DNA of 64,000 nucleotides from an uncultured Verrucomicrobiae bacterium (GCA_963728955.1 CAVSMG010000019.1:104275-168274); one strand, 5' to 3'. Positions 14,101-49,997 are shown, counted from the first letter of the stretch. A program made the numbers and translations. The notes: generated from the letters alone by a model not told the origin.

Positions 14101-14479
14101 CGACGGCTTTCCCCTGCAAACATTTGAGTCCAGCCTCGATTACGCTCCACTTTGAGCTGTCGATCACGATAGGGATGCGCACGATTTCTGGTTCGCTACC
14201 TATCAAGTTCAGGAAGCGAGTCATGGCTGCTTCCGAATCGATCATCCCCTCATCCATGTTCACGTCGAGCAGGTTCGCGCCGCCCTGCACCTGCTGACGC
14301 GCGACGGCCAAAGCGCCTTCGAAATCGTCCGCGAGGATCAGCTTCGAAAATTTTGGCGAGCCCGTGATGTTGGTGCGCTCCCCGATCACGGCGAAACCGA
14401 ATTCCGGCGTGATCTTTAGCGGTTCCAGCCCTGACAATTGCAGGGCGTTTTCGTCAAACGCCATTTCTTCGATCGGCAT
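11156..14479 (-). CDS. metH: Cobalamin-dependent methionine synthase: pterin-binding, B12-binding and AdoMet-reactivation modules. The Hcy module is in the upstream ORF. The gene carries an in-frame RayT-like insertion.
   Basis: Uninterrupted 1107-aa ORF. Motifs seen: LSGLEPL...[11 protein letters not shown] (pterin barrel), GDVHDIGKN plus GLSGLIT (B12 DxHxxG/SxL), and [13 protein letters not shown] plus [12 protein letters not shown] (activation domain). About 190 extra residues sit between EFLGLRVY and [12 protein letters not shown]. Confidence 0.9.
12079..12653 (-). mobile_element. RayT-like HUH/Y1 transposase module embedded in-frame in metH, bounded by 13-bp inverted repeats
   Basis: GGGGAGCGCACGC at 12079-12091 and its exact reverse complement at 12641-12653. 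The encoded segment has RRLPRFE, HUH ([10 protein letters not shown]) and the catalytic Tyr motif ([13 protein letters not shown]). Confidence 0.7.
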
Positions 14480-15658: not shown

Positions 15659-15688
15659 AACCACGAATGGACACGAACGCACACGAAT
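15659..15688. repeat. Decamer array AACCACGAATGG-ACACGAACGC-ACACGAAT (cacgaat family), solo copy
   Basis: Same 30-bp array as the terminal repeats of the GxxExxY cassettes at 36154 and 37400. Confidence 0.7.
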
Positions 15689-15723: not shown

Positions 15724-15773
15724 TGTAGGGCGTCTGTGTCAGACGCCGAGGTGTTTCAGAGAAACGCCCTACA
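15724..15773. repeat. REP element, TGTAGGGCG family
   Basis: TGTAGGGCGTCTGTGTCAGACGCC-GAGGT-GTTTCAGAGAAACGCCCTACA. It has an inner palindrome GGCGTCTG/CAGACGCC and outer arms TGTAGGGCG/CGCCCTACA. Near-identical copies lie at 39392 and 47956. Confidence 0.8.
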
Positions 15774-34339: not shown

Positions 34340-36109
34340 ATGCCCGCCCCAGCACGCCTGATTTCTCTCAATCTCGGATCTCAAACAATTGGTCTCGCGG
34401 AATTCCGAGTGGCCCATGGCAGTCTGGTCCTCGTAAATTATCGGTTACGCGAAACGCCGTTTGATCCCGAGACTGGCCAGCGGCGTGACCCGCACCTCGC
34501 TGTGACCGACACGGTCGCCGTGTTGCGCGACATGATGCGCGAAATGCAAATTCATGGCGGCCAGGTGAACTATGCAGTGCCTTCGCAATCCGTTTTTGCG
34601 CGCTTTGTAAAACTGCCGGCAATCGACGCGGCAAAGGTCGACAAGATCGTTGGATTCGAGGCGCAGCAAAATGTTCCCTTCCCAATCGACGAAGTTGTCT
34701 GGGATTACCAACTCGTCGGCGGCGGACTAGACGAACAAATTCAAGTGGTAATCGTCGCGATCAAGCGCGACTTGCTCGACGACATCAATAACGCCGTCGA
34801 AGAGACCGGATTGAGAACCCGAATCGTCAGTGTGGCGTCTGTCAGCCTCTACAACGCATTTCGTTACAACTATCCTGACATTGGCAACTGCTCGCTGCTG
34901 CTGGATATCGGCGCGCGCACCACCAACATTCTCTTCATCGAGCCGGGAAGATTTTTCCTGCGCAGCATTCCTCTTGGCGGCAGCACGATCACCGCGGGCG
35001 TTGCCAGGGAATTTAACGAATCATTCGCAGCAGCCGAAGAGCGCAAGAAACGGGACGGATTCGTCGGTTTAGGCGGCGCTTACGCCGAGCCTGCGGACCC
35101 AAATGTCGGACGCGTGTCGAAGATAGCGCGCAGCACCATGACTCGGTTGCATGCGGAATTGATGCGCTCTGTCACGCACTACCAGGCGCAACAGCGGGGA
35201 AATCGTCCGGCCCGCATTTTTCTTTGCGGTGGCGGCGCGGGCATGCCCTACATGCGCGAGTTCTTTCACGAGAAATTTCAGGTGCCGATTGAGATTTTTA
35301 ATCCGTTGCAAAACGTGACCGTGTCGAAGTCGGCGCCAAACCAGGATGTCGCGGCTTCTGCGCATTTGCTTGGTGAATTGGTTGGACTGGCATTGCGCAG
35401 CGTGACCGTTTGTCCGGTCGAATTGAATCTGCGTCCGGCGATCGTCGTTCGCAGGCACGACTTGGAAAAGCGCCGGACATTTTTTATCGCCGCCGCCGCG
35501 TGCATTCTGGTCGCACTACTGGGGTGGTCGGCGTATTACACGCGCGCGGCGCAGGTCGCTCAGCAAACTGCACAAATAATTCGCCAGAAGAACGACACCC
35601 TGCATCTGGCGGAAACGCAGTTGGACAAACTTAAAAAGCAAATTACGGCATTGGATAACGCAGCCACGCCACTTATCGCAGCCGTAAACGATCGCAATTT
35701 TTGGCCGCAGATTTTGGACGAACTAAATTCGCGCCTGCCGGAATCAGATATTTGGATCACGGAACTTGCCGCGACTTCCGGCGGAAAACTGCTTGGCGCT
35801 CCGGAAAAACGCGCCGGGGAAATTGCATCCACTCCTTCACCTCCGCCTGCCGGCAGCATAGCAAAGAGCGCGACTGCCGGGCCGAAGGCCATTGACGGCA
35901 TCAATGCGCACGGGCTTTACCTGTACAATCCGAAACAGCAGGAGATCGTGGTTGATTACCTGCGCAATCTCGCCCAGTCGCCGCTCTTTGCTGTCGATGC
36001 GAGGACCCCCGAACGCTTCATCAGATCCAATTCTGTCCCTAACGACACCGAATGGGCCTTTCCGTACGAGCTTCAGCTCACTCTGCGCAAACCGGCGAAA
36101 ATGCCATGA
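34340..36109 (+). CDS. PilM-like actin-fold ATPase fused to a PilN-like TM/coiled-coil/C-terminal domain (Amuc_1101-like)
   Basis: Intact 589-aa ORF. LNLGSQTIGLAEF..., VPSQSVFARFVKLPA and GFEAQQNVPFPIDEVVWDY fit PilM. A TM follows (FFIAAAACILVALLGWSAYY), then a coiled coil. Confidence 0.8.
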   Translation: MPAPARLISLNLGSQTIGLAEFRVAHGSLVLVNYRLRETPFDPETGQRRDPHLAVTDTVAVLRDMMREMQIHGGQVNYAVPSQSVFARFVKLPAIDAAKVDKIVGFEAQQNVPFPIDEVVWDYQLVGGGLDEQIQVVIVAIKRDLLDDINNAVEETGLRTRIVSVASVSLYNAFRYNYPDIGNCSLLLDIGARTTNILFIEPGRFFLRSIPLGGSTITAGVAREFNESFAAAEERKKRDGFVGLGGAYAEPADPNVGRVSKIARSTMTRLHAELMRSVTHYQAQQRGNRPARIFLCGGGAGMPYMREFFHEKFQVPIEIFNPLQNVTVSKSAPNQDVAASAHLLGELVGLALRSVTVCPVELNLRPAIVVRRHDLEKRRTFFIAAAACILVALLGWSAYYTRAAQVAQQTAQIIRQKNDTLHLAETQLDKLKKQITALDNAATPLIAAVNDRNFWPQILDELNSRLPESDIWITELAATSGGKLLGAPEKRAGEIASTPSPPPAGSIAKSATAGPKAIDGINAHGLYLYNPKQQEIVVDYLRNLAQSPLFAVDARTPERFIRSNSVPNDTEWAFPYELQLTLRKPAKMP

Positions 36110-36474
36110 AAGAGTCAACCACGGATAACACGGATGGATCGTTCACGAAGAGTAACCACGAATGGACACCAATGGACACGAATAGCGAAAAGCTTCTGCT
36201 CAAGGAGGAGGTGTTTCAGGTTGTCGGGTGCGCCATCGAGATTCTCAACACGCTTTGGCATGGTCTTCTTGAGAAGCCGTACGAAAATGCGTTGGTCGCA
36301 GAGTTTTCGCTACGAAAAATTCCATTTACGCAGTCCCGAAAGCTTTCGGGATTGAACTATCTCCGGGTCACAGGTCTCCGAGTTGGCGTGATCCTTAACT
36401 TCAGGCACCGGAAATTGGAATGGGAGAGGATCGCCTTAAAAAATTCGTGTCTATTCGTGTCCCTTCGTGGTTAA
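36106..36474 (+). pseudogene. GxxExxY (PD-(D/E)XK superfamily) protein, internally deleted copy
   Basis: The N-terminus is encoded by decamer repeats (NHEWTPMDTN). The GLLEKPY motif is present, but about 38 aa including the D...(D/E)xK core are missing relative to the copy at 37418. The start overlaps the pilM-like stop. Confidence 0.7.
36154..36472. mobile_element. GxxExxY cassette 1, bounded by 30-bp inverted decamer arrays
   Basis: Left array is AACCACGAATGGACACCAATGGACACGAAT (36154-36183). The right array at 36443-36472 has reverse complement AACCACGAAGGGACACGAATAGACACGAAT, about 27/30 identical. A cacggat-type array precedes it at 36117-36137. Confidence 0.6.
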
Positions 36475-36478
36475 TAAG

Positions 36479-37401
36479 ATGAAATGGTTTCAGCAAAACC
36501 GCGCGCTCGGAACCATTCTGCTCATTTCGGGAAGTTGCATCATCCTCGGCGCAGGTCTGCTTTACTGGAGGTGGAGTGTTTGGAGCGATGCCAAACAGAC
36601 GTTCGACCAGGCCACAGGCGAGCGCGACAGATTGCAGCGTCTCGATCCCTTTCCAAACGACGCGAACTACCGGAAATTGCAAGGCTACCTCGAGAGGTAC
36701 AAAGTCGCACTCGACAAGTTTAAAGACGAGCTAAAAGGCGAAATGGCGCCGGAGCCGGCGACTTGCGCCTAACGAATTCCAATCGCGTTTGCGCCAGGCT
36801 ACCCTCGCAACACAGGACCGGGCGCGCACGAACAATGTCAAATTGCCGGACAAATTTCAGCTCGGGTTCGACGAGTTCACCCGGACAATGCCTGGCACAG
36901 CCGTGACGCCGTTGCTTGGACAGGAACTCTCGCAAGTTCAAATGCTCATTAACATTTTGCTGGACGCGAAGGTGGACGGCATCCTGTCTTTCCACCGCCA
37001 TCCGTTGCCGCAGGAACATGGAGTATCCCCGACGCCGAAACCGCACCATCTCCAGGCCCGGCAGAAGAGTGGTGGCGGCGCGAAAACCTGGCGGGACGCC
37101 CGCGCCTGATTTGATCGAGCGCAATGTGGTCGATGTCACGTTCAAGGCTGCGCCCGGTGCAGCGCGAAGAGTGTTGAACGAAATCACAGGTTCCCGCGGG
37201 CAATTTTTCATCATCCGCACGCTGTACGTGCACGACGAAAAAGACAAAGGGCCGCCCCGCGAGAGAAACGCAAGCCCGACGCCGACGCCAGCCGCCGGGG
37301 CGAGTCCCGGTCAGTCACCCGCAGGCGCGCTGAACTTCATCGTTGGTAACGAGCACATCGAAGTCTCCGCCACGATCGAAATGCTGCGCTTTACCTTCTA
37401 A
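36479..37401 (+). pseudogene. Pilus-locus protein, Amuc_1100-like (N-terminal TM), two frameshifts
   Basis: Sensible sequence runs through frames of ORFs 36467, 36789 and 36916: MKWFQQNRALGTILLISGSCIILGAG (TM) ... KLPDKFQLGFDEF ... VVDVTFKAAPGAARRVLNEITGSRGQFFIIRTLYV ... IEMLRFTF. The family assignment comes from memory of Amuc_1100 and is tentative. Confidence 0.55.
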
Positions 37402-37832
37402 CCACGAATGGACACGAATGCACACCAATAAAGGGGTGCTCTTGTTCAAAGACGAGGTGTTCCAAATTGTCGGGTGTGCCATCGAAGTTCTGAATACGCT
37501 TGGGCATGGACTGTAGAGAAGCCTGTACCAAAACGCATTAGCAGTGGAGTTTGGGCTGAGGAAAATTCCTTTTCGGCAGCAACCGTCTTTCGACGTCGTT
37601 TACAAAGGACAAAAGGTTGGGCTGTTCATTCCTGACGTAATTGCTTTCGATTCGATCGTTGTCGACACAAAGGTAATTGATCGAATCACCGATCACGAAC
37701 GAGGTCTGATATTGAACTACCTACGCATCACGGGTCTTCGTGTTGGCGTAATCCTAAACTTCAAGCACAGGAAATTAGAGTGGGAGAGGATTGCCTTATA
37801 AAATTCGTGTCTATTCGTGTTCATTCGTGGTT
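37400..37832. mobile_element. GxxExxY cassette 2, bounded by 30-bp inverted decamer arrays
   Basis: Left array is AACCACGAATGGACACGAATGCACACCAAT (37400-37429). The right array at 37803-37832 has reverse complement AACCACGAATGAACACGAATAGACACGAAT, about 26/30 identical. The left end overlaps the stop of the upstream gene. Confidence 0.6.
37418..37801 (+). pseudogene. GxxExxY (PD-(D/E)XK superfamily) protein, full length but with an in-frame TAG in the signature motif
   Basis: MHTNKGVLLFKDEVFQIVGCAIEVLNTLGHGL-TAG(37514-37516)-RSLYQNALAVEF... Copy 1 reads GLLEKPYENAL here. Two compensating 1-nt indels flank the TAG. The remainder (PDVIAFDSIVVDTK...LNYLRITGLRVGVILNF) is intact. Confidence 0.7.
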
Positions 37833-37843
37833 AATCATTACCC

Positions 37844-38798
37844 ATGGCGAAAGCAATGGACTGGCTTAAGGCGAATTACGATCGCGCGCTGTTGATTGCC
37901 GCCGCGGCTTTTCTTTTTGTTACTGCGGTGGCCATTTGGTGGAGCGCCATCCAGTTCGGTAACCGACTGGTCGCTCCTCCGGCGGTTGCAGCCGAAGACG
38001 GCGTCGCAGCCGCCTGTGGCGGTCGAGCTGGATGACGCTGCGGAGCAACTCCATAAGCCGCTGCAATGGAAATCCACCACGCACTCCGGTCTGTTCGTTC
38101 CGGAAAAACATTTCATCGGGGCCGACGGCATGCCGGCTACGCTGCAAAACACGCAGGTGCATGCGCCGGTGCCTAACGAGTGGTTCGAAAAATACGCCTT
38201 GCCCATCGAAGACGCCGACGCTCTCGAGCAGGACCCGGACAAGGACGGCTTCACTAATCTCGACGAATGGCAGGGCAACACCGATCCGACCAACGCCGGG
38301 TCGCACCCGGATTACACCACGAAATTACGTTTAGTGTCCGCCAACGAGGAACCGTTCGCGTACATGTTTGCGTCGCGCACAAGAGACAACTTCGGCATCA
38401 ACAGCATCGACGAGACTGAACCGACCCAATTCCTGAAAGTCGGCGGCGTCATCCGCGGCACCGATTTCAAGATCGTCAGGTTTACGGAGAAAAAGGAACC
38501 CAATCAGTACGGAATTAAGATGGACGTATCGGAGTTGCTGCTCGAACACCAGAGCAGTCACGTGCAGGTCACATTGGTGAAAGGAAAACTCGCCACCTCG
38601 CCGCAATCCGTAGCCACGTTCGTTTACACCTGGGGCGGCCGGAAGGAATTCGAAGTGCGCAAAGACCAGGAGTTTCCTCTTGCCACCGCTGAAGGCAATC
38701 GGACGTACAAGCTCATCGACGTGCGCCCGGACAGGGCCGGGATCGTAAACACCCAAAACCCGGGTACGCCGATCGAGATTGGCTTCGCGAACCCGTGA
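37844..38798 (+). pseudogene. Pilus-locus protein with N-terminal TM and DPDKDGFTNLDEW (thrombospondin-type-3-like) motif (Amuc_1099-like), one frameshift
   Basis: The ORF 37844-38035 (MAKAMDWLKANYDRALLIAAAAFLFVTAVAIWW) continues in the frame of ORF 37896-38798 after about position 37990. Confidence 0.55.
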
Positions 38799-38806
38799 GG
38801 ATCTCT

Positions 38807-38874
38807 AACCACGAATTTACACGAATGGACACGAATTACAGGGAGGACCACGGATTACACGGATATCACGGATG
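38807..38874. repeat. Solo decamer arrays (cacgaat type followed by cacggat type)
   Basis: AACCACGAATTTACACGAATGGACACGAAT (38807-38836) followed by CCACGGATTACACGGATATCACGGATGG (38847-38874). No partner inverted array or GxxExxY gene is present. Confidence 0.7.
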
Positions 38875-39391
38875 GCCTGACAGAATGTACAAAATTAACA
38901 AAATCCATTGAAACTCGCTCGGCTCCCGCCTTACTCGGCGCTACCCATCGCGCCTTTACCTTCCATCTCGGAAACCCCATTTCCTCGATTCTGAGAATTC
39001 TGTTCATTCTGTCGAAAAAATCTGCGCCATCCCCCGCCTCCGCTGCGTCCTTCACGGTGTAAGAGGGAGTGCGTTTCGGCGAGGGCGCCGAAACCAACTC
39101 GTGTCATCCGGTGGTTCCGCATCTTCCTTAGGCCAAAAATCTTAAGAAATTTTCCTTGAACCTCGTAGAAGAGATCGAGTAAAAGCGCCTCAAATGTGCA
39201 TAGTTGCGAGCCGGAAACTACGGATTTGAAACTCGCTCATTTCCCAGTTGCTCGCTGCTACCCCTCGCGGCTCTGCCTTGTATCTCGCTGATCCCATCAG
39301 CTCGGTCCACGCATGCACACACTCAGAAGGACCAAGTGAGCCATATGAAAACCACCCGGAACGTAATAATCGTTGCAGTAGCGCGCGCTCC

Positions 39392-39441
39392 TGTAGGGCG
39401 TCTGTGCCAGACGCCATGGCGTTTCACAGAAACGCCCTACA
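39392..39441. repeat. REP element, TGTAGGGCG family
   Basis: TGTAGGGCGTCTGTGCCAGACGCC-ATGGC-GTTTCACAGAAACGCCCTACA. It lies just upstream of the inferred secretin start codon. Confidence 0.8.
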
Positions 39442-39450
39442 AGAGAATGC

Positions 39451-42170
39451 ATGCCGCGTTCGCGGTTTGCGCCGCGCTCTTTGCTCATCATCTTCTTCCT
39501 CCGCGGTCGCGCAGAACGCCGACAGCATCGCCGATCGCGAAGTGCAGCGGCGTCAGGCTGCTATGCCGGAAGGCGAAGCTGCGCTGGCGCGCGGCAAGTC
39601 CGCACTGAGATCGAAAAATTACACCGTCGCGTACCAGGAATTTAAGACTGCCATCGGCTATCTGCCGGATGCAGTCGTGTCCGGGAAAGCGCACGACGAA
39701 GCGGCGGAAGGGGTTTGCAAAAGCGGCACCGTTTTGGCCGAAGCACGGATTGCTCAGGGCGATTACCCCGGGGCCGAAGCGATCCTGAACGAAATCTTAA
39801 CCCGTTACGATCCCAATTGCCGCAAGGCGCAGGACCTTTTCGCGCATTTGCGCACGCCGGGTTACTTCAACAAAACGGTGGACCCCGGCTTCACCAACAA
39901 AGTCGAGGAAGTGAAACGTCTGCTCGCCGAAGCCGACGGCTTTTATCAATCCGGGCAGTACGATAAGGCGATGAAAAGCTATGACAAGGTGCTGGCGCTC
40001 GATCCGTACAACACCGCGGCGCGCAAAGGCCAGGAAAAAATCGACAACACCAAATACCAGTACGGCGAGGAAGCGTACAACGAGACGCGGGCGCGCAAGC
40101 TATGGAAAGTCGAAGAAGCATGGCAACAACCGGTCAGGAAATATGGCGCTGTGGGCCCGGTCGCTGACAACAAAGGGCGAGGGGAAGTGCGCGGTACCGC
40201 GCAGATGACCAACAAACTGAATAGCATCATCATCCCGCACCTGGAATTTCGCGATACCACGTATTCGCGAGGCGATCGATTTTCTTCGGGAGCAGGCAGC
40301 CGAGAACGATCCTTCGGGACAGGGCGTAAACATTGTGCTGCGGCTCGTTCCTCTCGGACAAGTTGCGCCGCCTTCAATGCCAGTCGTGCTGCCGACCGGT
40401 ACCGGCACGCCCGGAGCAGGTGCCCGCCGGTAACCACACCGCCCGCAGGGGCGCCCGCGCAGGGCGCTCCTGGCGCGTCGCCAGGGCGCAGCGCCCGTTC
40501 CGGCCCGGCCGGGTGCGCGCATCACCGTGACGCTGGATAACATTCCACTCGGTGAAGCGTTGCGGTACGTCGCTGCCCAAGCCGGATTAAAAGTGAAAGT
40601 CGAACCGTATGCGGTTACACTTATTCCTCTCAGCGAGCAAAGCAACGATCTGATCACAAAGCGATATCACGTGCCGCCGGAATTTTTCGGCGGGCCACTT
40701 GATGTCGGTTACTACATCGGAAGCAGTGTGGCCGGTGGTGGCGGCAGGGCGCTGGCACGACGACCGGAATTCGGAGGAGCCACCCGTGGCGACCAGCGTT
40801 ATTGAGAAGGAAGCAGTAAGCTTTCAGACCGCTTCCGGAATCGGCACCGGCGCTGGTGCTTCGAGCCAGTGCAAACCAATTGCAAGGCACTGCCAGCTAC
40901 TCGCCAGACGTTGCAGAACGATCGTCAACTCGTCGGGCGAGCCGACGCGATAACGATGTTGAAGAGCATGGGCGTCTCGTTTCCTGCCGGCGCGAGCGCA
41001 ACCTTCTGGCCGCATAGCGGGACGCTGATCGTGCGCAACACACAGGACAATCTGGACATGGTGGACGCGTTGGTTGATCAGGCGAATTCGTCGGCGCCCA
41101 ACAGGTCGAGATCGAATCGAAGTTTGTCGAGATTAATCAAAACAATCTTAAGGAACTTGGCTTCGACTGGTTATTGGGTCCGTTTAGCACTAATGGCAAA
41201 GTTTTCGGTGCAGGTGGAACCGCTGGCAACGGCGCCCCTGTCAACCGCGGCGAATTTTCCGTTCAATGATGCGAACGGGAATCCGATTGGACAAAACCCG
41301 GTCACGTCCGGAAATCGCAGCGGTAATTTCGCGATCAGCGCCAACGCGCTCGATGCGCTTTTGATGCCAGGTCTTGGGCAAGTTGCTGGCGTCGCTCCGG
41401 GAATCTTTGGATTGGCCGGGGTTTTCACCAATCCACAATTTCAGGTCGTGATTCGCGCGCTCAATCAAAAGAAAGGCATCGACCTTCTTTCCGCGCCCAG
41501 TGTGACCACAAAGAGCGGCCAGCGCGCCATTATCGAAGTCATTCAGAGAGTTGCGTTATCCTAGGACATACACTCAGCCGCAGGTTCCATCCGATGTAGC
41601 TAGCCACTCTGGTGGGCGCCGACGACCGTTCCTGTGGTGGTTACTCCGACGACGCCTCAAGACTGGGAGACGCGAAACACTGGTGTGACGCTGGAAGTCG
41701 AGCCAGTAGTTGGCGGGGATGCACGACGATCGATCTCAACTTGGTTCCGCAGGTCGTCGAGTTCGAGGGGTTCATCAATTACGGCAGCCCGATTTTTGCA
41801 GTCGGCGTCAATACTGCGGCTGGGATATCGATTTCCAACCGGTTCTGCTCACTCCAATGCAATAAATCAGCCGGTCTTCAGCACTCGCAAGGTGACCACA
41901 AGCGTGAGCGTTTATGACGGGCAAACGGTCGTATTGGGTGGGTTGATGCGTGAAGACGTTCAGAAAACTGAGGATAAGGTTCCCATCATTGGCGACATTC
42001 CATTTGTCGGCAGGGCGTTTCGCACTAACACGGAGCAGCATACCAAAAAGAATTTGGTCATTTTCGTCACCGCGCACATCATCACGCCCGCAGGTGTGCC
42101 GTTGAACGAGGAAGAAGAGGAAGGCCTGCTGCCGCCCGAGCTGCCGGAAGTGCCGGCGTATAAGAAATAG
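39451..42170 (+). pseudogene. Outer-membrane secretin (type II/III secretion / PilQ-like, Amuc_1098-like) with N-terminal TPR region, at least 10 frame changes
   Basis: The signal peptide MPRSRFAPRSLLIIFFL(AVAQ) is followed by a TPR region (YQSGQYDKAMKSYDKVLALDPYN). Next come LEFRDTT/IREAIDFLREQ and a secretin core: QVEIESKFVEINQNNLKELGFDW, NPQFQVVIRALNQKKGIDLLSAPSVTTKSGQRA, VTLEVEPVV. The core ends YDGQTVVLGGLMRED...KVPIIGDIPFVGRAF...KKNLVIFVTAHII. These segments are spread over all three frames. Confidence 0.75.
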
Positions 42171-42218
42171 CCCATAGTCTATAGTTGATAGTTGAGAGTC
42201 TCAGCAGAGAGGCGCGAC

Positions 42219-43748
42219 GTGAAAAAAACAAATTAACCCTTCAGTTAAGGCGCACCTTTTCCGGAGCGCGCTGGTTCTGCTTTCACTGGTGACTTTCAGC
42301 CAGGATATCTTCTGTCAGACGCCGAAGCTCCACGCCACTCCCACGGCGACGGCAGAGTGCTTTAGGCCCCCACCGGGAGCGTGTGTATGGTATGAAGCGG
42401 AGTCGCCTATTTGCCCCCCAAATCCCCAAGCCGGAGACCGATGTAACATCCTGGAGGGAAGCGCCATCGTTCTAAGCTGCCCGACATGCTCCGAACGGAA
42501 AAAAGGTAAGTTACGTGGGCAGCAACGATGGTAATCTGCAGTTCAATGCTGTCGGTGTTGTCGCAACGGGCAATTACACCGTGACGATCTGCTACCTCAA
42601 CGGAGACGCGGTGCGCTACGCCTATCTGAGCGTGAACGGCGGTCCAGGAATGCCTGTGACCTTTCCCTCCACTGGCTCGTTTGAGACTCTGGGGTCAATA
42701 CAGGTAACCGTCACTTTAAACACGGGTTGCAACACGCTTAAGTTCTACAATCCGATCGTTGGTAGCTGGGCGCCGGATTTCGATCGGATTCAATTCAACT
42801 GCCCGACCTGCGCGCTGCCTGCACCCACGCCCACGCCTACGCCTACATCCACGCCAGCACCAACCCCTACACCAGACGGGTGCTATCCCAATTTCACGAC
42901 AGCGGAAGGATGCGATGCGCTTAGTCTCCTCGCCACAGGCGCCGGAAATGCAGGGCTTGGTTGGCGTTCGCTCTTTTTGGATACGACCGGCGGCTTCAAC
43001 ACCGGTGTTGGCGGCGGAGCGCTGGCGCTCAACAACGGGGATTCCAATACGGCGGTGGGCGCTGCAGCGTTGTTGCTCAATACCAGCGGCACAAACAACA
43101 CCGGCGTTGGAACCGACGCGCTCGTCTTTAACGACAGCGGTGACTCCAACACTGCCACCGGTTACTTTACGCTCATGAACAATACCACCGGCGGCTTCAA
43201 CACGGCCATCGGTTCGGAAGCGCTCACTGCCAACACCAGCGGGAACAACAACACAGCCACCGGTGATCTCGCGCTCACAGAACACCGAAACCACGAGCCA
43301 CCATGTTGCATAGGCAAAATGGCCGGGTCTGGTATCACCACCGCCAATAACAACATCATCATCGGTCACCACTCTGGCGTGCACACTGTTTTTGGCCAGG
43401 AAAGCGACAGGTGCTTTATCGACAACATCCCCGGTGCGCCGGTTTCCGCCGCGACGGCAATGCCGTGATGGTCGATTCCGATGGAAGATTGGGCACTGTC
43501 ACCGCCGAAGGACCGGCCCGGGTGGATTTTCGCTCAAAGGCATCCGGCCCCAAGCCATTCCCGATGCCGCCAAGCAAGCGATGCTCAATCTCGAAGTTCA
43601 AAAGTTGCGGACAACGATCTCGCAACAACAGAACCAAATAGAAATGCTCACCGCCCGGCTGAAAGAGCAAACCGCACAAATCCAGAAAGTGAATGCCCAG
43701 CTCGAAATGCGTAAGCCGGCAGCCAAAGTGATTGTGAACAAACTGTAA
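42219..43748 (+). pseudogene. Secreted protein: CBM6/35-like domain, Pro/Thr linker, Hep_Hag/YadA-head-like NTA-G repeats, C-terminal coiled coil; at least 4 frameshifts
   Basis: GTG start plus signal peptide (MKKQINPSVKAHLFRSALVLLSLVTFSQD) if the A7 run at 42222-42228 is read as A6. Then YEAES...VSYVGSNDGNLQFNAV...LSVNG...APDFDRIQF, PTPTPTPTSTPAPTPTP, repeats of NTAVGAAAL/NTGVGTDAL type, and LNLEVQKLRTTISQQQNQIEMLTARLKEQ. Confidence 0.65.
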
Positions 43749-43782
43749 AACTGTTCAAAACAATGAAACGAAATCAAAAAAG

Positions 43783-44747
43783 ATGAAAAATCGAAGTACG
43801 ATATTGATGGTCATCCTGCCGGTGTTAGCCTGCTTCGCGCTTTTGCCAGCAGCGCGGGCGGTCAGTCCGGCACCGGATGGATGCTATCCCAATTTCACGA
43901 CAGCCGAAGGGTGCGATGCGCTTAGTTTCCTCACCACCGGCGCTGGAAATACAGCGCTTGGTTGGCGATCGCTCTTTTCAGATACCACCGGCAGCTTCAA
44001 CACCGGCGTTGGCGCTGGGGCGCTGGTCCTCAACAACGGGAGCTCCAATACCGCAGTGGGCGCTGCAGCGTTGTTGCTCAACACCACGGCCTCAAATAAT
44101 ACGGCCGTTGGAACTGACACACTCGTCTTTAATGACAGCGGTGCCTCTAACACTGCCACTGGTTACTTTGCGCTCATGAACAATACCATCGGCGGCTCTA
44201 ACACAGCCATCGGTTCGGAAGCGCTCACTGCTAATACCAGCGGAAACAACAACACGGCCATCGGCAATCTGGCGCTTAAGAACAGCGAAACCACGAGCGA
44301 TAACGTTGTCGTAGGCACAAGGCCGGGTCTGGCATCACCACCGCTAATAACAATATCATCATCGGCCACCACTCTGGTGTGCACAGTGTTTTCGGCCAGG
44401 AAAGTGACAGATGCTTTATCGACAATATCTCCGGTGCACCGGTTTCCGCCGCGACGGCCGCTATAGTGATGGTCGATTCCGATGGACGACTGGGCACGGT
44501 CACCGCCGATGGACCTGAGCTGGGTGGATTTTCGCCCAAAGGCATCCGGCCCCCAGCCATTCCCGATGCCGCCAAGCAAGCCATGCTCAATCTCGAAGTT
44601 CAAAAGTTGCGGGCAACGGTCACGCAGCAACAGCAACAAATAGAGAAGCTCACAGTCCAACTGAAAGAGCAGGCTGCGCGAATCCAGAAAGCGAATGCCC
44701 AGCTCGAAATGCGCCAGCCGGAGACAAAAGTGGTCGACAAACCTTAA
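43783..44747 (+). pseudogene. Paralog of the preceding gene without the CBM: signal peptide, Hep_Hag-like repeats, coiled coil; one frameshift
   Basis: MKNRSTILMVILPVLACFALLPAARA, then DGCYPNFTTAEGCDALSFL... The frame changes near 44320 and continues as AGSGITTANNNIIIGHHSG...CFIDNISGAPVSAATA...LNLEVQKLRATVTQQQQQIEKL. Confidence 0.65.
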
Positions 44748-44897
44748 AGCTGTTCCTTGAGGAGAGTCACGGAGGAAACTGATGAAAACTCTGCGGACCC
44801 TTTTTTTGGGAATTCTTGATGTTGTGGCGCTGGTAACATTCGTCTACTCACGTGGCGGCAAAGCAGCAGCGGATTCGAACGTTGAGAGGCCCGGGCG

Positions 44898-44952
44898 ACC
44901 ACGGATTACACTTTTGTCTTCGTTATTTCCGAACATCCGTGTCATCCGTGGT
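44898..44952. repeat. Gene-less mini-element with cacggat-type inverted ends
   Basis: ACCACGGATTACAC (44898-44911) matches the reverse complement of GTGTCATCCGTGGT (44939-44952), which is ACCACGGATGACAC, at 13/14 positions. Confidence 0.6.
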
Positions 44953-45072
44953 AAAACTCTCTCGGCGTCCGCCGCGGCGGACGCCCTACAACATTCGTGT
45001 CTATTCCAGTTTACCCGCCGCGTGCGGGTGCCGATTACTGGTTAAATCTGCCGTGATTGGTCACATTCCGAA

Positions 45073-45102
45073 CCATCCGTGATATCCGCGCCATCCGTGG
45101 TT
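45073..45102. repeat. Decamer array, cacggat type, inverse orientation
   Basis: CCATCCGTGATATCCGCGCCATCCGTGGTT. Its reverse complement is AACCACGGATGGCGCGGATATCACGGATGG. Confidence 0.6.
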
Positions 45103-45209
45103 CTCTCTGCTTCCCGTGCCAGTCCATTCGCCTGCCGCGCCGTAGTCCTGCGACTGCGGGACGAAGGCGGGTGGTTAAATCTGCCCCAAAAAAAAGTTAA
45201 AAATAGTTA

Positions 45210-45238
45210 TTGACTTCCTTAGCGAATATTGCGATAAG
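45210..45238 (+). promoter_or_regulatory. Candidate sigma70-type promoter of the prepilin-like gene
   Basis: TTGACT (45210-45215), 17-nt spacer, GATAAG (45233-45238). It is preceded by an A/T-rich tract and followed by a roughly 170-nt C/A-rich leader. Confidence 0.35.
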
Positions 45239-45407
45239 CGCGCCTCAATCTTAGGAGAAAGCTCCTAGGAGCAAACCAAAACCCCCAACCCCAACCCCCC
45301 AAGAAAAGGACCCCAGAACATCGGTCCGCCGAAGCAAAGGCGGACCCTCAGACCAAACACCCTCTGAGAAAACCCTCAGAACAACCGCAGAATAAAAAAA
45401 CCAAAAA

Positions 45408-46023
45408 ATGAAAATAAAAATAAATAAATCCCCCTCAGCATTCACCCTTATTGAGTTGCTGGTCGTGATTGCGATTATCGCAATTCTGGCCGCACTGGCA
45501 GTGCCCGCATTAACGTCGGCGCTCGCCAAGGCTCAACAGACCGGCACCATGAACAACGCCCGCCAGCTTTACTTGGCACAATTCCAAATGTCGAATGACG
45601 GCGCAGCAACCGGCGACGCCACTTCAGCGTGGCCTGGCGACCTTCCTGCGCGTTCCAGCGACCGTTAGTGGATTATCTTAACGTGCTGTGTTGGAAAAGG
45701 TTACCTAAAAGGTGGCGACGCTATCAAGCTCTTCAACGCTCCTGGTGCCTCGTTCACCGCCACGGTGACGACCACAAATGGTATCGACCAGCTAACCGTT
45801 GCTGCTGGGACAGCGCCGCCCTGAAAGTTTGGCCAACCAGAGACGTGGATCCTGCGACGACGATTTTTTCCACCAGCAAAAACTACGTCTATGACACCGC
45901 CATAGTGGCAGGATCTGTTCCGTACGGTACCAAAGGGTTTCATCACGATGCAGAAAGGCGGCGACGCGAGCTGTCTTTAGGGTAGGCCAGGCCACTAGCT
46001 GGCGGTTGGGCGCGGTGCGGTGA
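45408..46023 (+). pseudogene. Prepilin-type N-terminal cleavage/methylation domain protein (pseudopilin-like), several frameshifts; 3' end uncertain
   Basis: [35 protein letters not shown]. Downstream sense sequence (YLKGGDAIKLFNAPGASFTATV; TIFSTSKNYVYDTAIVAGSVPYGTKGF) is scattered over three frames. Confidence 0.7.
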
Positions 46024-46160
46024 GGTAACATTCCAGAATGCAGTCGGCTCTAAGCACCGGAGATCCTCTGGAGCACCGTCAGTCCTGGCGATCCTACCTC
46101 TGCCCTTCGCTGACCTCTCACCTTCTAAAGCGACCCTGGCTCGTTTAGTTTGGTTAACTC

Positions 46161-46195
46161 AAAGCGCCCCGCCTCGGCGGGGCGCTTTTGTTTTC
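46161..46195 (+). terminator. Rho-independent terminator
   Basis: AAAGCGCCCCGCC-TCG-GCGGGGCGCTTT hairpin followed by TGTTTT. Confidence 0.75.
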
Positions 46196-46353
46196 TGGGG
46201 AGCGCGAGCGCCCTCGCCGAAACGAACTTTTGCTCTTAGTTTCGTCCGCAGATTGATTCGCACTCTCCGAGTGCCTTATTAGCGAATCTCAACCCCGGGA
46301 AGATTGGCCACGGGAATATTGGCTTTCCAGTTGTAATGCGCTACCAAGTTTCC

Positions 46354-46622
46354 GTGCAATTCGAGTTCGATCCGTGGAAGAGCGAGAACAAGAAGGCAAA
46401 ACACACGGAATCGATTTTGTCGAAGCGCAGGCGCTCTGGAAATCGAAGCACGTACTTCTCGACGCCAAAGACGTTTTAGAAAAGCGATATATGGTCATCG
46501 GGAGAATCGGCAGCGAACATTGGTCGGCGATTATCACCTATCGCGGCGCGGCAATTCGGATTATTAGTGTAAGGAGATCCACCGCAGTGGAGATCGAGAC
46601 GTATGAAAAAATCGCAGGATAA
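46354..46622 (+). pseudogene. BrnT-family (DUF497) toxin, frameshifted near its N-terminus
   Basis: GTG-QFEFDPWKSENKKAKH in one frame joins GIDFVEAQALW...IRIISVRRSTAVEIETYE in the next, at a CACAC tract around 46405. Confidence 0.65.
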
Positions 46623-46824
46623 CCAGACAACAGCGAAGAACCTCGAAGAGAAATTCGACCGAGGCGAAGATGTGCTCGATTATTTTGATCTACGCAAAGC
46701 GCGCCTTGTCGATCCACAACCCAATAAGAACGGTAAAGAAAAATTTCCTCATCCGATAAAGCGAAGCTCCAAGCGTACAGCGGTCGTTCGAGAAAAACCG
46801 GCGCGCTATCCGAAAAAGAAATAG
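46603..46824 (+). CDS. BrnA/CopG-like antitoxin
   Basis: 73-aa ORF overlapping the BrnT stop. It contains LEEKFDRGEDVLDYFDL, the pattern I recall for BrnA-type antitoxins. Confidence 0.6.
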   Translation: MKKSQDNQTTAKNLEEKFDRGEDVLDYFDLRKARLVDPQPNKNGKEKFPHPIKRSSKRTAVVREKPARYPKKK

Positions 46825-46921
46825 GGAACGCGCCAAATCATGAGCAAAACGTCTGATCGGATTGCGACGTTCATGCTCGCAGCCGGCAAGGCTGCCTCTG
46901 CAGCAGAAAATCGCGCCTGAT

Positions 46922-47182
46922 CTATAGCCGCTCGGTTTGAACGTTTATGTGAGGTTGCGGTACAGTTCGCGTTGCAGGAGCCGGACTGTCGGGAATCGGT
47001 TTCACCATCCACTCCCAGCCAATATGGCCCTCTTTGTCGAAGGTCCACGCTGCGCCGCCGCGTTTCCAGATCTCAGATCGCCAGTAATTACTGTTAGCCG
47101 GAATTGCGAACGCATACGTGACCCCGGCTGTGATCATCACTCCGCACAACATTCCAATCAAAAACATGCGACGCCTTCTCAT
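46922..47182 (-). CDS. Hypothetical small membrane protein
   Basis: 86-aa ORF, MRRRRMFLIGMLCGVMITAGVTYAF (N-terminal TM). No homolog recognised. Confidence 0.35.
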   Translation of the reverse strand: MRRRRMFLIGMLCGVMITAGVTYAFAIPANSNYWRSEIWKRGGAAWTFDKEGHIGWEWMVKPIPDSPAPATRTVPQPHINVQTERL

Positions 47183-47284
47183 ATTAGTAACCTCCGATCT
47201 GTTACCGCTTCACTGCTACTGCGCTTCCAGCAGACACTTCCTTATCTGTCCTTCGCAATTCGCCGTCAAGCTGGTTTCCCCCAA

Positions 47285-47632
47285 AACCACGAATTCACCA
47301 GCCTTCACATCGTTACGGCTTGGCAAGCACGAATGGGACATCAATGTTTACGGAAAGTGGACGACCAAGTTCTGCCCGTGATATCCCGTTTTGTAACCAC
47401 GAATTCACCAGCCTTCACATCGTTACGGCTTGGCAAGCACGAATGGACACCAATTGGCAGACAATCAGACAACCACGGATGATACGGATTTCACGGATGG
47501 TCGAAGAATGACGAAGCAGGACTCTGGCTGCTTGTAACCACGAATTCACCAGCCTTCACATCGTTACGGCTTGGCAAGCACGAATGGACACCAATTGGCA
47601 GACAATCAGACAACCACGGATGATACGGATTT
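47285..47632. repeat. Three tandem copies of a 56-bp core (AACCACGAATTCACCAGCCTTCACATCGTTACGGCTTGGCAAGCACGAATGG) with variable tails
   Basis: Copies start at 47285, 47395 and 47536, giving periods of 110 and 141 bp. Copies 2 and 3 share a further roughly 40 bp (ACACCAATTGGCAGACAATCAGACAACCACGGATGATACGGATTT). Confidence 0.8.
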
Positions 47633-47674
47633 TGAAATTCGCTCTTTCCCAAGTCGCTCTTCGCTACCCTCGCC

Positions 47675-47931
47675 GTGATCGGCAAAGCGGATCGGCGCTT
47701 CTGGAGATCCTTCGAAAAATTACCCGTGCCTGTGAGAAGTTGGCGCGTGAAAAATACGCGCTCTGGAAGCGCGACCCCTATCACTCGTCGCTCCATTTTG
47801 AAGAGCGCCGCAACGGCGTCTGTGTTGTTCGTATCGGAGAACATTACCGTGCGCCAGGGCTGCGTGAACAGGAAGTCGTCGCCTGGTTCTGGATCGGCAC
47901 GCATGAGGAATATAACCGATTCCGGTTTTGA
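47675..47931 (+). pseudogene. Small RelE/ParE-superfamily-like toxin (WFWIG-H-EY family), frameshifted in an A5 run
   Basis: GTG-IGKADRRFWRSFEK in one frame joins ITRACEKLAREKYALWKRDPYHSSLHFEE...RIGEHYRAPG...VAWFWIGTHEEYNRF in the next if the A5 run at 47725-47729 is read as A6. Confidence 0.5.
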
Positions 47932-47955
47932 AATAGCTGAGCTGTATTCAAGGAT

Positions 47956-48015
47956 GGGGCGTTATCTGTGAAACGCCATTTCGAACAGGTCGGCGTCTGA
48001 CACAGACGCCCTACA
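47956..48015. repeat. REP element, TGTAGGGCG family, inverse orientation
   Basis: The reverse complement reads TGTAGGGCGTCTGTGTCAGACGCC-GACCTGTTCGAAATGGC-GTTTCACAGATAACGCCCC. Confidence 0.75.
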
Positions 48016-48021
48016 ATGTTA

Positions 48022-48047
48022 GCGTCCATTGGCGTCCATTAGTGGTT
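48022..48047. repeat. Decamer array variant (AATGGACGCC units), inverse orientation
   Basis: GCGTCCATTGGCGTCCATTAGTGGTT. Its reverse complement is AACCACTAATGGACGCCAATGGACGC. Confidence 0.55.
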
Positions 48048-48164
48048 GAGTTTTTTGGCGGATGAAGTGGGTGAACACACGCGAGGCGGATGGAGTTTTC
48101 GAATCAGACGTTGAATAAATCCGGGGGTGGGAAAGTCGAAGGCCTCGTAAACCTTTTCACGATT

Positions 48165-49997
48165 ATGAAAAAAATTCTCTTTGCATTAAGCATGCTGGCG
48201 TTTGCTGTGTCTGCTCTTCCGCAGGCGCGGGGAGCGGATGTATCGACCGATTTCTTTTACGACAATCTTTCCGGGGGTAACTGGATCGACGTTGAAGGCT
48301 ACGGATACGGCTGGCAACCGGACCTCGCGGTGAGCGATCCAAACTGGCGCCCTTACGCAGATGGATACTGGGCGTACACCGATTACGGTTGGACGTGGAT
48401 CAGCTATGAGGATTTTGGCTGGGCCACGTATCACTACGGTCGCTGGGCCAATCTCGGAGACTACGGCTGGGTCTGGTTCCCGGGAAGCGATCTGGACTGG
48501 GGACCGGCGTGGGTCTCATGGCGAACCGGTGGCGATTACATCGGCTGGGCGCCTTTGCCTCCGCGCGGACCGGGCGTTGTCTATGAAGGGCAACCGATCG
48601 GTGCAAACGTGGACATCACGTTCGGTATCGGCCCGGAATATTACAACTTTTGCGACGTGCGGTTTATCGGCGAACCGGTTCTGCGCGATCGCATTTTTCC
48701 GCCGGTGCAAAACATCACCTACATCACCAACACGGTGAACGTGACCAACATCACCGTGCAGAACAACGTGGTGTACAATTACGGCCCGAATTTCAACGTC
48801 GTTAACCAATACTCGAGCCGGCCGATTCAGCGGCTTACCATCGAGCGGGAGACGCCGAATAATCTATCCGCCGCGGTTAAATCCGGAACCCTCACCAAGG
48901 TGCAGGGTAACAAGCTCCTGATTGCTGCGCCGACTAAGATCGCGAAGGCGCCGCCTACCGCGAAGCCACCGGCCGTAAAGGCGAAAGTTGCAGAGCCAAA
49001 ACTTGAGCGCGGCTGGAAGGGTGTTCCTAACAGAGCGGAACTGGAACAAAAGATTAAGAACCAAAATCCAAAGAACATTCCGCCGCCGACTCGCGCGGCT
49101 GCGCGCGAAGCGGGCAGCCCCGCGCCGGGCGTCGGGACAAGTCCAGCTGGCACGAGTGGCGGGGCCGAAGCTTCACCCGGCCCTCGCGGAAAGCGGGGAC
49201 GCGTGATGCCTGGTGCGACGGGAGCGCCCTCGTTAGGCGGGTCACCATTTGACCGCGGAAAAGGCAAGCCCGGCGCGCGGCCCGGAGCAAAGGCGATGCC
49301 GGAGGAAGGCGAAGGACGCGTTGCGCCTTCGCCATTTGAACGCGGCAAAGCTAGACCCGCCGTGCCCGGTGCATCGCCAAAGCCAGCCGTAAACCCCAGG
49401 CAGATCATGAGGCAGGACACAAATGTGCAAGGTTCTCCCGCTGAAAAAGAGCGCGGTAAGCCAGGAAGCGAAAGGCTCCGATCTACACCGTTTTCTGGAC
49501 AAGGAGGTGCCGGTTTGGACAAATCAACCTTTGGCGAGAGGGCGAAACCTGCCCCGACAAGTCAAGCAAACACGGAGCGCGAACTCATGGACAAATTAAG
49601 CGAAGGAAGAAGAAACACTAAGAAAGGACAAGATGGCTATGCTCAACCTCGCATGGCGCCAAATGGTGGAGGACCCCGCGAACCGCAAGGCGAAAAAGAA
49701 CGCGGCCAACCCGGAATCAACAAACCTCCCACCACATCGCCTCCCGGTGCAGGTGAACATGGGCAACGCGGCGGAGGTCAGCCAACTGGATTTCGTCAAC
49801 CTGGCACTCAGGCAGGTGGTGCAGGATCTGCGGATGCGCGCGGACAAAAAGAAAGAACGCAGGGCGCTCATGTTCAACCGCCACCGCCGCAACGAGGTGG
49901 GGTCCCTGGCAAAGCCGAGCGTGGCCAGGCACAGGAACAGCCGGAAGGCGGAAAGAGAAAACCGGAAAAAGGAACACCACCGCCAAGGCCACAATAA
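48165..49997 (+). CDS. Secreted DUF6600-like Trp/Tyr-rich protein with long Gly/Pro/Lys-rich C-terminal tail
   Basis: The signal peptide is MKKILFALSMLAFAVSALPQARG. WQPDLAVSDPNWRPYADGYWAYTDYGWTWISYEDFGWATYHYGRWANLGDYGWVWFPG...GPAWVSWRTGGDYIGWAPLPP follows. The tail carries repeated SPF(D/E)RGK and EKERG(K/Q)PG units. Confidence 0.7.
   Translation: MKKILFALSMLAFAVSALPQARGADVSTDFFYDNLSGGNWIDVEGYGYGWQPDLAVSDPNWRPYADGYWAYTDYGWTWISYEDFGWATYHYGRWANLGDYGWVWFPGSDLDWGPAWVSWRTGGDYIGWAPLPPRGPGVVYEGQPIGANVDITFGIGPEYYNFCDVRFIGEPVLRDRIFPPVQNITYITNTVNVTNITVQNNVVYNYGPNFNVVNQYSSRPIQRLTIERETPNNLSAAVKSGTLTKVQGNKLLIAAPTKIAKAPPTAKPPAVKAKVAEPKLERGWKGVPNRAELEQKIKNQNPKNIPPPTRAAAREAGSPAPGVGTSPAGTSGGAEASPGPRGKRGRVMPGATGAPSLGGSPFDRGKGKPGARPGAKAMPEEGEGRVAPSPFERGKARPAVPGASPKPAVNPRQIMRQDTNVQGSPAEKERGKPGSERLRSTPFSGQGGAGLDKSTFGERAKPAPTSQANTERELMDKLSEGRRNTKKGQDGYAQPRMAPNGGGPREPQGEKERGQPGINKPPTTSPPGAGEHGQRGGGQPTGFRQPGTQAGGAGSADARGQKERTQGAHVQPPPPQRGGVPGKAERGQAQEQPEGGKRKPEKGTPPPRPQ

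Follow-up and report, generated by a model that had tools for sequence, protein, structure and literature searches.

Decayed GxxExxY nuclease genes between inverted heptamer arrays in a verrucomicrobial pilus-like operon: probable remnants of an ancient selfish cassette

The described elements that come closest to the one reported here are the REPIN/RAYT systems, in which repetitive extragenic palindromic (REP) sequences occur in association with a transposase (PMC3116915, PMC3337134, bioRxiv 10.1101/2021.07.10.451892), the intervening sequences (IVS) of the Coxiella 23S rRNA (PMC4990558), the free-standing homing endonuclease genes of T4-like phages such as seg and mob (PMC2988022), and the pairs of miniature inverted-repeat transposable elements (MITEs) and insertion sequences (IS). 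In this study, which was based on a stretch of 64,000 nucleotides from an uncultured Verrucomicrobiae bacterium (GCA_963728955.1 CAVSMG010000019.1:104275-168274; hereafter, the window), we analysed two pseudogenes of the GxxExxY family, each of which lies between inverted arrays of short repeats. They occupy the PilM-like/Amuc_1100-like and the Amuc_1100-like/Amuc_1099-like junctions (sites 1 and 2) of a pilus-like operon that resembles that of Candidatus Udaeobacter. Based on the comparison with orthologous loci, other operons and other phyla, both loci are probably copies, now decayed, of a selfish nuclease cassette that is ancient and bounded by arrays. Its intact unit of approximately 432 bp is composed of a left array with the start codon inside, the gene, a spacer of approximately 10 nt and an inverted right array.

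Similar to the REPIN/RAYT systems, the GxxExxY cassette is a small nuclease-type gene between inverted copies of a short repeat, and the repeat is also dispersed without the gene in intergenic regions, as singlets and inverted doublets. The covariation of the repeat sequence with the enzyme lineage, which is typical of REPIN/RAYT, was observed here as well, as was a long-term, largely vertical persistence. The two differ in the enzyme, which is an HUH/Y1 transposase in RAYT and a protein of the PD-(D/E)XK fold that matches only PF13366 in the cassette; in the repeat, which consists of three direct, non-palindromic units of 8-10 nt rather than the single hairpin palindromes of REP, usually tagged with GTAG or CGTC; and in number and position, with several GxxExxY copies per genome, two of them in this operon, which lie inside operons, co-oriented, at stop/start junctions. 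The Coxiella IVS share with the cassette a length of approximately 430 nt, terminal inverted repeats of approximately 28-30 nt, one small open reading frame (ORF) that is prone to decay and a position within a host transcript; that they derive from a mobile element is a long-standing but undemonstrated suspicion (PMC4990558). In contrast to the cassette, which sits at the junctions of an mRNA operon and carries a nuclease, the IVS sit in helix 25 or 45 of the rRNA and carry an S23p/four-helix-bundle ORF; moreover, the repeats of the cassette are periodic, conserved in sequence and free of pairing covariation, and their stem is predicted from the sequence. The cassette also resembles the free-standing homing endonuclease genes in being a small nuclease gene between conserved genes that is patchily distributed at orthologous sites, where intact and degenerate copies occur alongside empty sites, in the manner of the homing cycle. 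It differs from them by its many unrelated sites instead of one cognate target, by its conserved terminal arrays and by its residence in chromosomal bacterial operons instead of phage genomes or introns. Some homing enzymes, such as I-Ssp6803I, have the PD-(D/E)XK fold. Terminal inverted repeats and gene-less derivatives that arise by internal deletion are shared with the MITE/IS pairs, from which the cassette differs because it has no DDE or other known transposase, because no recent copies of high identity were found and because a target-site duplication of fixed length could not be shown.

The two dead genes that the sequence-only reading had placed between inverted arrays at the junctions of the pilus operon were confirmed; the arms of both cassettes are 31 nt long (Table 1), and both genes score above the family cut-offs (35 bits for TIGR04256; 22 bits for PF13366, with 50.8 bits for copy 1 and 67.6 bits for copy 2). 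Neither copy has kept the intact GxxExxY signature together with the PD...(D/E)xK residues, and both are pseudogenes of the family. The alignment to intact orthologues revealed that an internal deletion of approximately 113 nt takes the PD...(D/E)xK core out of copy 1, as had been proposed; additionally, its stop codon has mutated from TAA to AAA, and the reading frame therefore continues through the right array to the TAA at 36472-36474. The TAG and the compensating indels that had been described in the signature of copy 2 correspond to a -1/+1 frameshift pair within GLVEKPY that gives rise to the TAG at 37514-37516; the catalytic D...DTK region remains readable. The edges of the cassettes agreed with the earlier description only in part. 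Cassette 2 does abut the upstream stop codon, the first three bases of its left array being the TAA (37399-37401) of the Amuc_1100-like gene, but cassette 1 does not, as a gap of 44 nt that contains a remnant of a CACGGAT-type array separates it from the PilM-like stop (36107-36109). Arrays of the CACGGAT type bracket GxxExxY genes of a second lineage, lineage B, at the same junction in L009, L027, L028, L035 and other orthologous loci. At the right edge, for which a distance of 6-11 nt had been given, the arrays end 5 nt from the Amuc_1100-like ATG at 36479 and 10 nt from the Amuc_1099-like ATG at 37844. Within the window, a consensus 30-mer was found six times with at most three mismatches against 0.00 expected, and in none of 100 shuffles, and the period of the array units is exactly 10 nt.

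The orthologous loci that were compared are 80 loci (911 kb) that carry an orthologue of the PilM-like gene, in 71 of which site 1 was readable. The site was empty in 37 of these, where the PilM stop overlaps the Amuc_1100 start (ATGA; GCCATGAAxTGGTTT), and the other 34 had inserts of 52-613 nt; the presence/absence polymorphism expected for an inserted cassette was thus observed. In distant relatives, a 5-nt spacer (TAA-AT-ATG) is present at site 2, which is occupied in most Udaeobacter. The ancestral state is the stop/start overlap at site 1 and the 5-nt spacer at site 2. The filled sites hold either one of two different GxxExxY lineages or array remnants without a gene. A hidden Markov model search of the orthologous loci and the window revealed 30 GxxExxY copies, all of them at one or the other of these junctions and in the orientation of the operon. 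In the orthologous loci, every copy with readable flanks (28/28) was bracketed by arrays; one further copy lay at the end of a contig. Approximately one in three copies was a pseudogene. Lineages A and B are approximately 40% identical to each other. Lineage A has CACGAAT units with a 10-nt period, a left array that abuts the gene and a right array 4-19 nt past the stop codon, while lineage B has CACGGAT units with a 9-nt period and a right array 50-69 nt past the stop codon; each copy with readable flanks was bracketed by the array type of its own lineage.

The copies did not cluster by site. The site 1 copy of L035 was 88-90% identical to the site 2 copies of L009 and L038 and 78% identical to the site 1 copy of L009, and in one contig the copies at both sites were approximately 90% identical, compared to a median of 82% within a site, which indicates that copies were exchanged between the junctions. 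Moreover, at site 2 of L001, L002, L012, L028, L051 and L054, lineage-B cassettes were nested in an A-type array behind its first unit, and nesting after the first array unit was also found in L183. In the left flank at site 1, there is a decayed duplicate of the Amuc_1100 start region, with a length of approximately 22 bp in L029 and L053; in L027 it is 13 bp and in the window 6 bp long. In L005, L008 and L083-L087, such a duplicate overlaps the PilM stop (ATGA) and is in frame with the GxxExxY ORF, and gene callers therefore predict proteins of 135-139 aa with an MSGL(T/M)TNHE... N-terminus. The cassette may in this way borrow the translational-coupling signal of the host at site 1.

A metagenome scan yielded 80 lineage-A loci, approximately half of which are at neither pilus junction. 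All of the 92 unique lineage-A metagenome cassettes had inverted arrays, and their length had its mode at 432 nt (44/92). The loci away from the pilus junctions represent more than 20 flank contexts (23 flank clusters), such as cdsA-[cassette]-dxr, folB-[cassette]-argH, ExbD-[cassette]-TonB and PglZ-[cassette]-BrxL, between an ATP-citrate-lyase-like gene and an HD-domain gene, 3' of serS or ribE, and beside secretin, MFS and ABC-transporter genes. Of 41 contexts, 32 had a called end of a co-oriented upstream ORF; most of these ends fall in the interval from 25 nt ahead of the left array to 19 nt inside it, with the commonest positions being -1 (the TAA of TAACCAC) and +9 (a TGA within the array); the downstream start codon is usually 4-17 nt past the right array. 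Short duplicates of the downstream start were also present in some of the non-pilus contexts, weakly above the null. A simple TA/TTAA target duplication was rejected because the apparent terminal TA/TTAA belongs to the inverted repeat itself, which is longer in L157 and L171. In another contig (L184, positions 1-500), a gene of the 23S_rRNA_IVP family (PF05635, four-helix-bundle) lies in a GxxExxY operon and is followed by a right-type array (...TTTGTGTTCTCTGTGGTTAA), with the left flank beyond the contig end. The array-bounded vehicle may thus carry other small genes, which would link it to the 23S IVS.

Analogous arrays around GxxExxY genes were found in Bacteroidota, Alphaproteobacteria and Spirochaetota using tblastn against plasmids and chromids together with contig look-ups. 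In Sphingomonas, the gene lies between fabD and fabG with arms of 25 nt (TTCACGCGAAGGCGCGAGGACGCGA, 92%), and in Bacteroides it lies between radA and the gene for an FAD protein with arms of 30 nt (TTCACCACAGAGGAC(A/G)C(A/T)GAGGACAC(A/G)GAG, 90-93%). The latter junction was the context in all 24 of the contigs that were read, and the Bacteroides protein was listed in 3763 collection blocks. The arms in Treponema measure 16 nt. Three metagenome contigs encode GxxExxY proteins that are 59-66% identical to the Bacteroides protein; in one (66%), the gene lies between those for V-ATPase subunits B and D, and in the other two it lies between UDP-glucose dehydrogenase and epimerase genes or follows a GFO/IDH-family gene and precedes a hexapeptide-transferase gene. 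A gene-less hairpin of CGCGGAT arrays was found just 3' of a GxxExxY gene in Gemmatirosa. The units CACGAAT, CACGGAT, CACAGAG, CACGAAG, CACAGAT, CGCGAAG and CGCGGAT of the different lineages have a common form and are accompanied by a terminal (A/T)(A/C)ACCAC. The interpretation of the loci as a cassette bounded by terminal inverted repeats is therefore supported by its presence or absence at orthologous sites, its unrelated contexts and its recurrence in other phyla.

The left array of lineage A has the layout TAACCACGAAT-GG-ACACGAAT-GG-ACACGAAT, i.e., three decamers, and its conservation is concentrated in the heptamer core, the two spacer bases varying freely. Contrary to the earlier claim that the left arrays are translated as an NHEWT... 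N-terminus, the start codon used throughout the family is the ATG that occupies array positions 19-21 (T20 in 100% and G21 in 91% of the left arms; G21 in only 47% of the right arms), and the coding part of the array is its last 12 nt. The non-coding arrays were 92-93% identical among cassettes compared to 89.5% at codon positions 1 and 2. Among the 92 lineage-A cassettes, the arms of one cassette had 3.84 mismatches per 30 positions and shuffled partners had 3.79 +/- 0.09, and no compensatory covariation between the arms was detected, whether G:U pairs were allowed or not; in lineage B (n=18), the arm comparison showed a slight excess over the null (19.6 compared to 17.7 +/- 0.6) in a set that contains one misassigned A cassette and a few aberrant pairs. 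Taken together, the conservation of the arrays, the lack of arm covariation in lineage A and the match between array type and lineage favour iterated sites that would be recognised by a sequence-specific protein over an RNA stem, which is in agreement with the protein-binding sites that had been proposed in the sequence-only reading. The simplest recogniser would be the nuclease of the cassette itself. A rationale based on stop codons in three frames was dropped; a 10-nt period places TAA, TGA and TAG in all frames in lineage A only, and this does not extend to the 9- or 8-nt periods of lineage B, Bacteroides and Sphingomonas. No Rfam family matched the arrays or cassettes, either at the gathering thresholds in the whole window or at E<=5 in 35900-39400.

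Arrays were also frequent without the gene. Counting arrays of at least two units in the 911 kb, 53 of the 76 A-type arrays and 66 of the 98 B-type arrays had no adjoining gene, and the gene-less arrays included 32 inverted pairs, spaced 33-327 nt, and 64 solo arrays. Some of the gene-less pairs (L017, L032, L054) retain the first or last codons of the gene and are therefore internal-deletion derivatives, and copy 1 of the window is an early stage of the same decay; other pairs carry GTAG-tagged hairpins. The relation is thus asymmetric, and the supposed pairing of gene and arrays held in one direction only: every gene with readable flanks (28/28, and the 92 cassettes) had arrays, but most arrays had no gene. 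RAYT genes and REPINs show this asymmetry too, as do autonomous elements and their MITEs. Essentially all of the gene-containing pairs were homotypic; two apparent B/A pairs, which were not checked singly, were read as nested.

The intact gene has 127 codons and is under strong purifying selection, with a median ratio of nonsynonymous to synonymous substitutions (dN/dS) of 0.07, a dS of 1.4 and 56% identity at third positions; synonymous sites are saturated. The residues G31, L32, E34, Y37, E38, D73, K85, N114, F115 and R124 are invariant across the lineages, with D or E at position 83; the invariant positions include the catalytic E, D and (D/E)xK residues. The AlphaFold2 model of an intact orthologue (P0001), which had a predicted local distance difference test score (pLDDT) of 93, had as its Foldseek neighbours lambda/alkaline exonuclease, Cas4 SSO0001, restriction-endonuclease-like proteins and Hjc (template modelling (TM) scores of approximately 0.45-0.58), and the protein is accordingly predicted to adopt a PD-(D/E)XK nuclease fold. 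No match for the protein was found in a sequence search of the PDB, and no relatives were confirmed in the viral contigs that were scanned with the A and B alignment. The family matched nothing significant in PADLOC and PHROGs, with two marginal PADLOC matches for the Bacteroides protein (E 0.002 and 0.005), which leaves a defence or phage-gene reading unsupported. The family comprises at least 8007 clusters at 50% identity (E<=1e-3) and is annotated across many phyla. Its function was given as unknown by Steczkiewicz et al. 2012. In the full-text literature that was searched for GxxExxY, PDDEXK_3, TIGR04256 and PF13366, only incidental mentions were found, and no array-bounded cassette was found described, which is in line with the earlier remark that such behaviour was not known for this family. 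In the library of protein representatives, P0361 is a predicted protein of 3143 aa in which separate GxxExxY-like stretches occur 20 times, and two such stretches are present in each of several proteins of 250-390 aa; these could be tandem cassettes or artefacts of gene models.

Several other explanations of these observations had to be weighed. The arrays might act at the RNA level, similarly to the 23S IVS, by pairing as a stem of approximately 30 bp in the operon transcript, where a cut by RNase III or a looping-out would insulate the ORF and join the upstream stop to the downstream start. In the minimum free energy and centroid structures, the arrays do form the closing long-range stem of both window cassettes, the cassettes are always co-transcribed with host genes, and the layout matches that of the Coxiella IVS (428-444 nt, 28-bp terminal stem, an ORF of S23p size, excision by RNase III; PMC4990558), to which the 23S_rRNA_IVP-family gene of L184, in the same operon and followed by a right-type array, can be added. 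A stem, however, does not need a conserved heptamer core with free spacers and a periodic unit, and the arms of the 92 cassettes lack compensatory covariation whether G:U pairs are counted or not. Many arrays (64) are solo, Rfam gave no match, and the start codon would lie inside the stem although selection acts on the protein being made. We consider an explanation at the RNA level unlikely as the main one, and it may coexist with the cassette interpretation. It is less probable still that the arrays are generic REP- or MITE-like intergenic repeats that serve another enzyme or a host purpose, with the GxxExxY genes as captured passengers without a functional link. The two thirds of arrays without an adjacent gene, the other cargo in array pairs, e.g., GTAG-tagged hairpins, and the several array types that share the same spacers would be expected under this explanation. 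It does not account for the arrays at every copy with readable flanks, at a fixed distance and with the start codon inside, for the match between array type and protein lineage in gene-bearing pairs, which are essentially all homotypic, or for the recurrence of the association in distant phyla with diverged units; moreover, some gene-less pairs are demonstrable deletion derivatives of gene-bearing cassettes.

The low dN/dS (0.07) could also point to a small gene that is beneficial to the host, such as a repair, defence or RNA-processing nuclease, which is inherited vertically and often lost and whose arrays are regulatory sites. The same Bacteroides junction in all 24 contigs and the absence of recent copies agree with such a gene. 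The junction genes, however, are functionally unrelated, the pilus sites were ancestrally a precise overlap or a 5-nt spacer, two lineages nest in and replace each other at one site, approximately one in three copies from the orthologous loci is a pseudogene, and no significant match to defence-system or phage protein families was obtained; we regard this explanation as very improbable. Integron gene cassettes were rejected because the GxxExxY cassettes are single at dispersed junctions and no integrase was seen among the neighbours viewed, although integrase and attC were not specifically searched for.

The array-bounded selfish cassette accounts best for the comparison of the loci, in which the unit appears as discrete, present or absent at orthologous junctions and co-oriented between a stop and a start codon in many operons. 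The arrays would be its cis-acting ends, recognised by the nuclease of the cassette as iterated heptamer sites, and the nuclease and arrays together would form a system of autonomous and non-autonomous repeats like RAYT/REPIN. The cassette would spread rarely, most likely through breaks that the nuclease makes at arrays and whose repair uses a gene-bearing copy as the template (array-directed homing or gene conversion), which would also explain the exchange between the two pilus junctions. At a junction, a promoterless gene could use the transcription and translational coupling of the host while the host genes are spared. The targeting of gene ends that had been suggested from the sequence alone holds insofar as stop/start junctions recur in more than 20 contexts, but it cannot yet be told apart from the survivorship of harmless insertions.

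Several observations weigh against this interpretation. No pair of copies from different contexts is more than 92% identical, so the copies are old and mobility is inferred by comparison rather than seen in action; nothing indicates that transposition is going on at present, and old vertical inheritance with loss could account for much of the distribution. Protein similarity was the criterion by which the metagenome loci were retrieved, so that this sample is biased to intact genes. In 30 contexts, flank repeats showed only a weak excess (6.08 compared to a null of 5.44 +/- 0.19), and the site 1 duplications of the start of the downstream gene vary in length (approximately 6-25 bp). About two thirds of the arrays stand without a gene. 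The unit period varies from 8 to 10 nt across the lineages; the units of about 10 bp that were first described are exact in the window, but the idea of one site per helical turn is thereby weakened. Finally, to our knowledge no strand-transfer activity is known for a PD-(D/E)XK nuclease of approximately 125 aa.

A bolder and more doubtful extension, which we put forward tentatively, is that the GxxExxY proteins are the dedicated enzymes of an unrecognised pan-bacterial class of mobile elements, in which the nuclease would cut gene-less or juxtaposed array pairs and the cassette would be copied by repair, the stop and start codons of the arrays and their closing stem would spare the coupled genes, and four-helix-bundle genes may share the vehicle. 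The finding of an array-bounded cassette gives the large and hardly studied GxxExxY/PF13366 family a biological context and explains one common source of the odd N-terminal extensions and junk ORFs in the annotation of Planctomycetes-Verrucomicrobia-Chlamydiae (PVC), Bacteroidota and soil metagenomes. The heptamer arrays offer concrete cis sites for biochemical work. Moreover, REPIN/RAYT and the 23S IVS elements, which have long lacked an explanation, gain in the cassette a counterpart based on a PD-(D/E)XK enzyme, and the finding bears on the persistence of selfish genes inside essential operons.

Table 1. Coordinates of the cassettes, arrays and host genes in the window.
Feature	Position	Strand	Basis and remarks
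PilM-like (Amuc_1101 family) gene	34340..36109	+	intact; upstream of cassette 1; NF045709 612 bits, TIGR01175 142.8 bits
Lineage-B type array remnant (AACCACGGATAACACGGATGG; CACGGAT)	36116..36140	+	unit scan; between PilM-like stop and cassette 1
Cassette 1 left array (TAACCACGAATGGACACCAATGGACACGAAT)	36153..36183	+	three 10-nt units; holds ATG at 36172
GxxExxY pseudogene copy 1	36172..36474	+	TIGR04256 59.5 bits in two stretches; alignment to intact orthologues
Cassette 1 right array	36443..36473	-	inverted left array, 31 nt, 90% complementary
Amuc_1100-like gene	36479..37401	+	three reading frames via single-base indels; NF038287 matches in three ORF pieces
Cassette 2 left array (TAACCACGAATGGACACGAATGCACACCAAT)	37399..37429	+	start ATG at 37418
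GxxExxY pseudogene copy 2	37418..37801	+	TIGR04256 73.7 bits for 3' part; alignment
Cassette 2 right array	37803..37833	-	31 nt, 87% complementary to left array
Amuc_1099-like gene	37844..38798	+	NF042425 164 bits; +1 indel near 37988
Gene-less arrays, third junction	38806..38873	+	8 nt past Amuc_1099-like stop; A-type 38807-38836, B-type 38849-38873
Solo A-type array	15659..15688	+	unrelated intergenic spacer, beside GTAG-tagged hairpin

The profile matches of the window ORFs assign the operon to the type of the Akkermansia pilus-like cluster Amuc_1098-1102. In public data, the PilM-like protein is closest to those of Candidatus Udaeobacter and of metagenome-assembled genomes of Chthoniobacterales (up to 84-85% identity), and the identity of its 80 orthologues ranges from 58 to 85%. 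In one Udaeobacter contig (L081, 1776-2206), a HicA-toxin gene with a small partner ORF lies directly upstream of the PilM-like gene. The indels of the Amuc_1100-like gene, as determined against L001 and L083, are at 36761 and approximately 37046-37110. Much of the pilus-like cluster (36479-46100) appears pseudogenised, with the PilM-like gene spared; a large gene downstream is broken into ORFs at 39248-40540, 40527-40805 and 40869-41564, and a type IV pilin-like gene from 45409 seems to be interrupted. Genes outside the cluster are intact, with window ORFs of 450-1100 aa unbroken elsewhere. Because the frameshifts cluster in the pilus region while the long ORFs elsewhere are intact, the decay of the pilus genes and cassettes looks like real, local pseudogenisation and not like a generally error-ridden assembly. 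Assembly error was rejected as the cause of the dead genes since the loss of 113 nt in copy 1 cannot be a base-calling error; for the lesion of copy 2, a sequencing error is conceivable, if unlikely. The cassettes of the window and much of the surrounding operon are thus at the degenerate end of the life cycle of the cassette. At the third junction (38806-39015), a degenerate array of CAGAAT units lies in inverted orientation at approximately 38987-39013, approximately 150 nt beyond the tandem arrays, and this junction may represent what is left of a third cassette that has eroded completely. Further related gene-less arrays are found at 44935, 45084, 47438, 47474 and 47579.

The window also contains other repeats. 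A GTAG-tagged palindrome of the classical REP type (GTAGGGCGTCTGTGTCAGACGCC) is present at 14475-14497, 15725-15747, 39393-39419 and 47988-48014 (0 expected); it adjoins a decamer array at 15725 and 47992 and lies between array pairs in L022 and L051. At 47280-47640, a composite unit (AACCACGAATTCACCAGCCTTCACATCGTTACGGCTTGGCAAGCACGAATGG...), which was seen by eye, occurs three times with irregular spacing and is mixed with B-type arrays (47474, 47615); Tandem Repeats Finder reported nothing in 44800-48200. A dispersed short repeat (GAAA(C/T)TCGCTC..TTCCCAGTTGCTCGCTGCTACCC-like) adjoins arrays at 38905-38960, 39225-39275 and 47636-47680.

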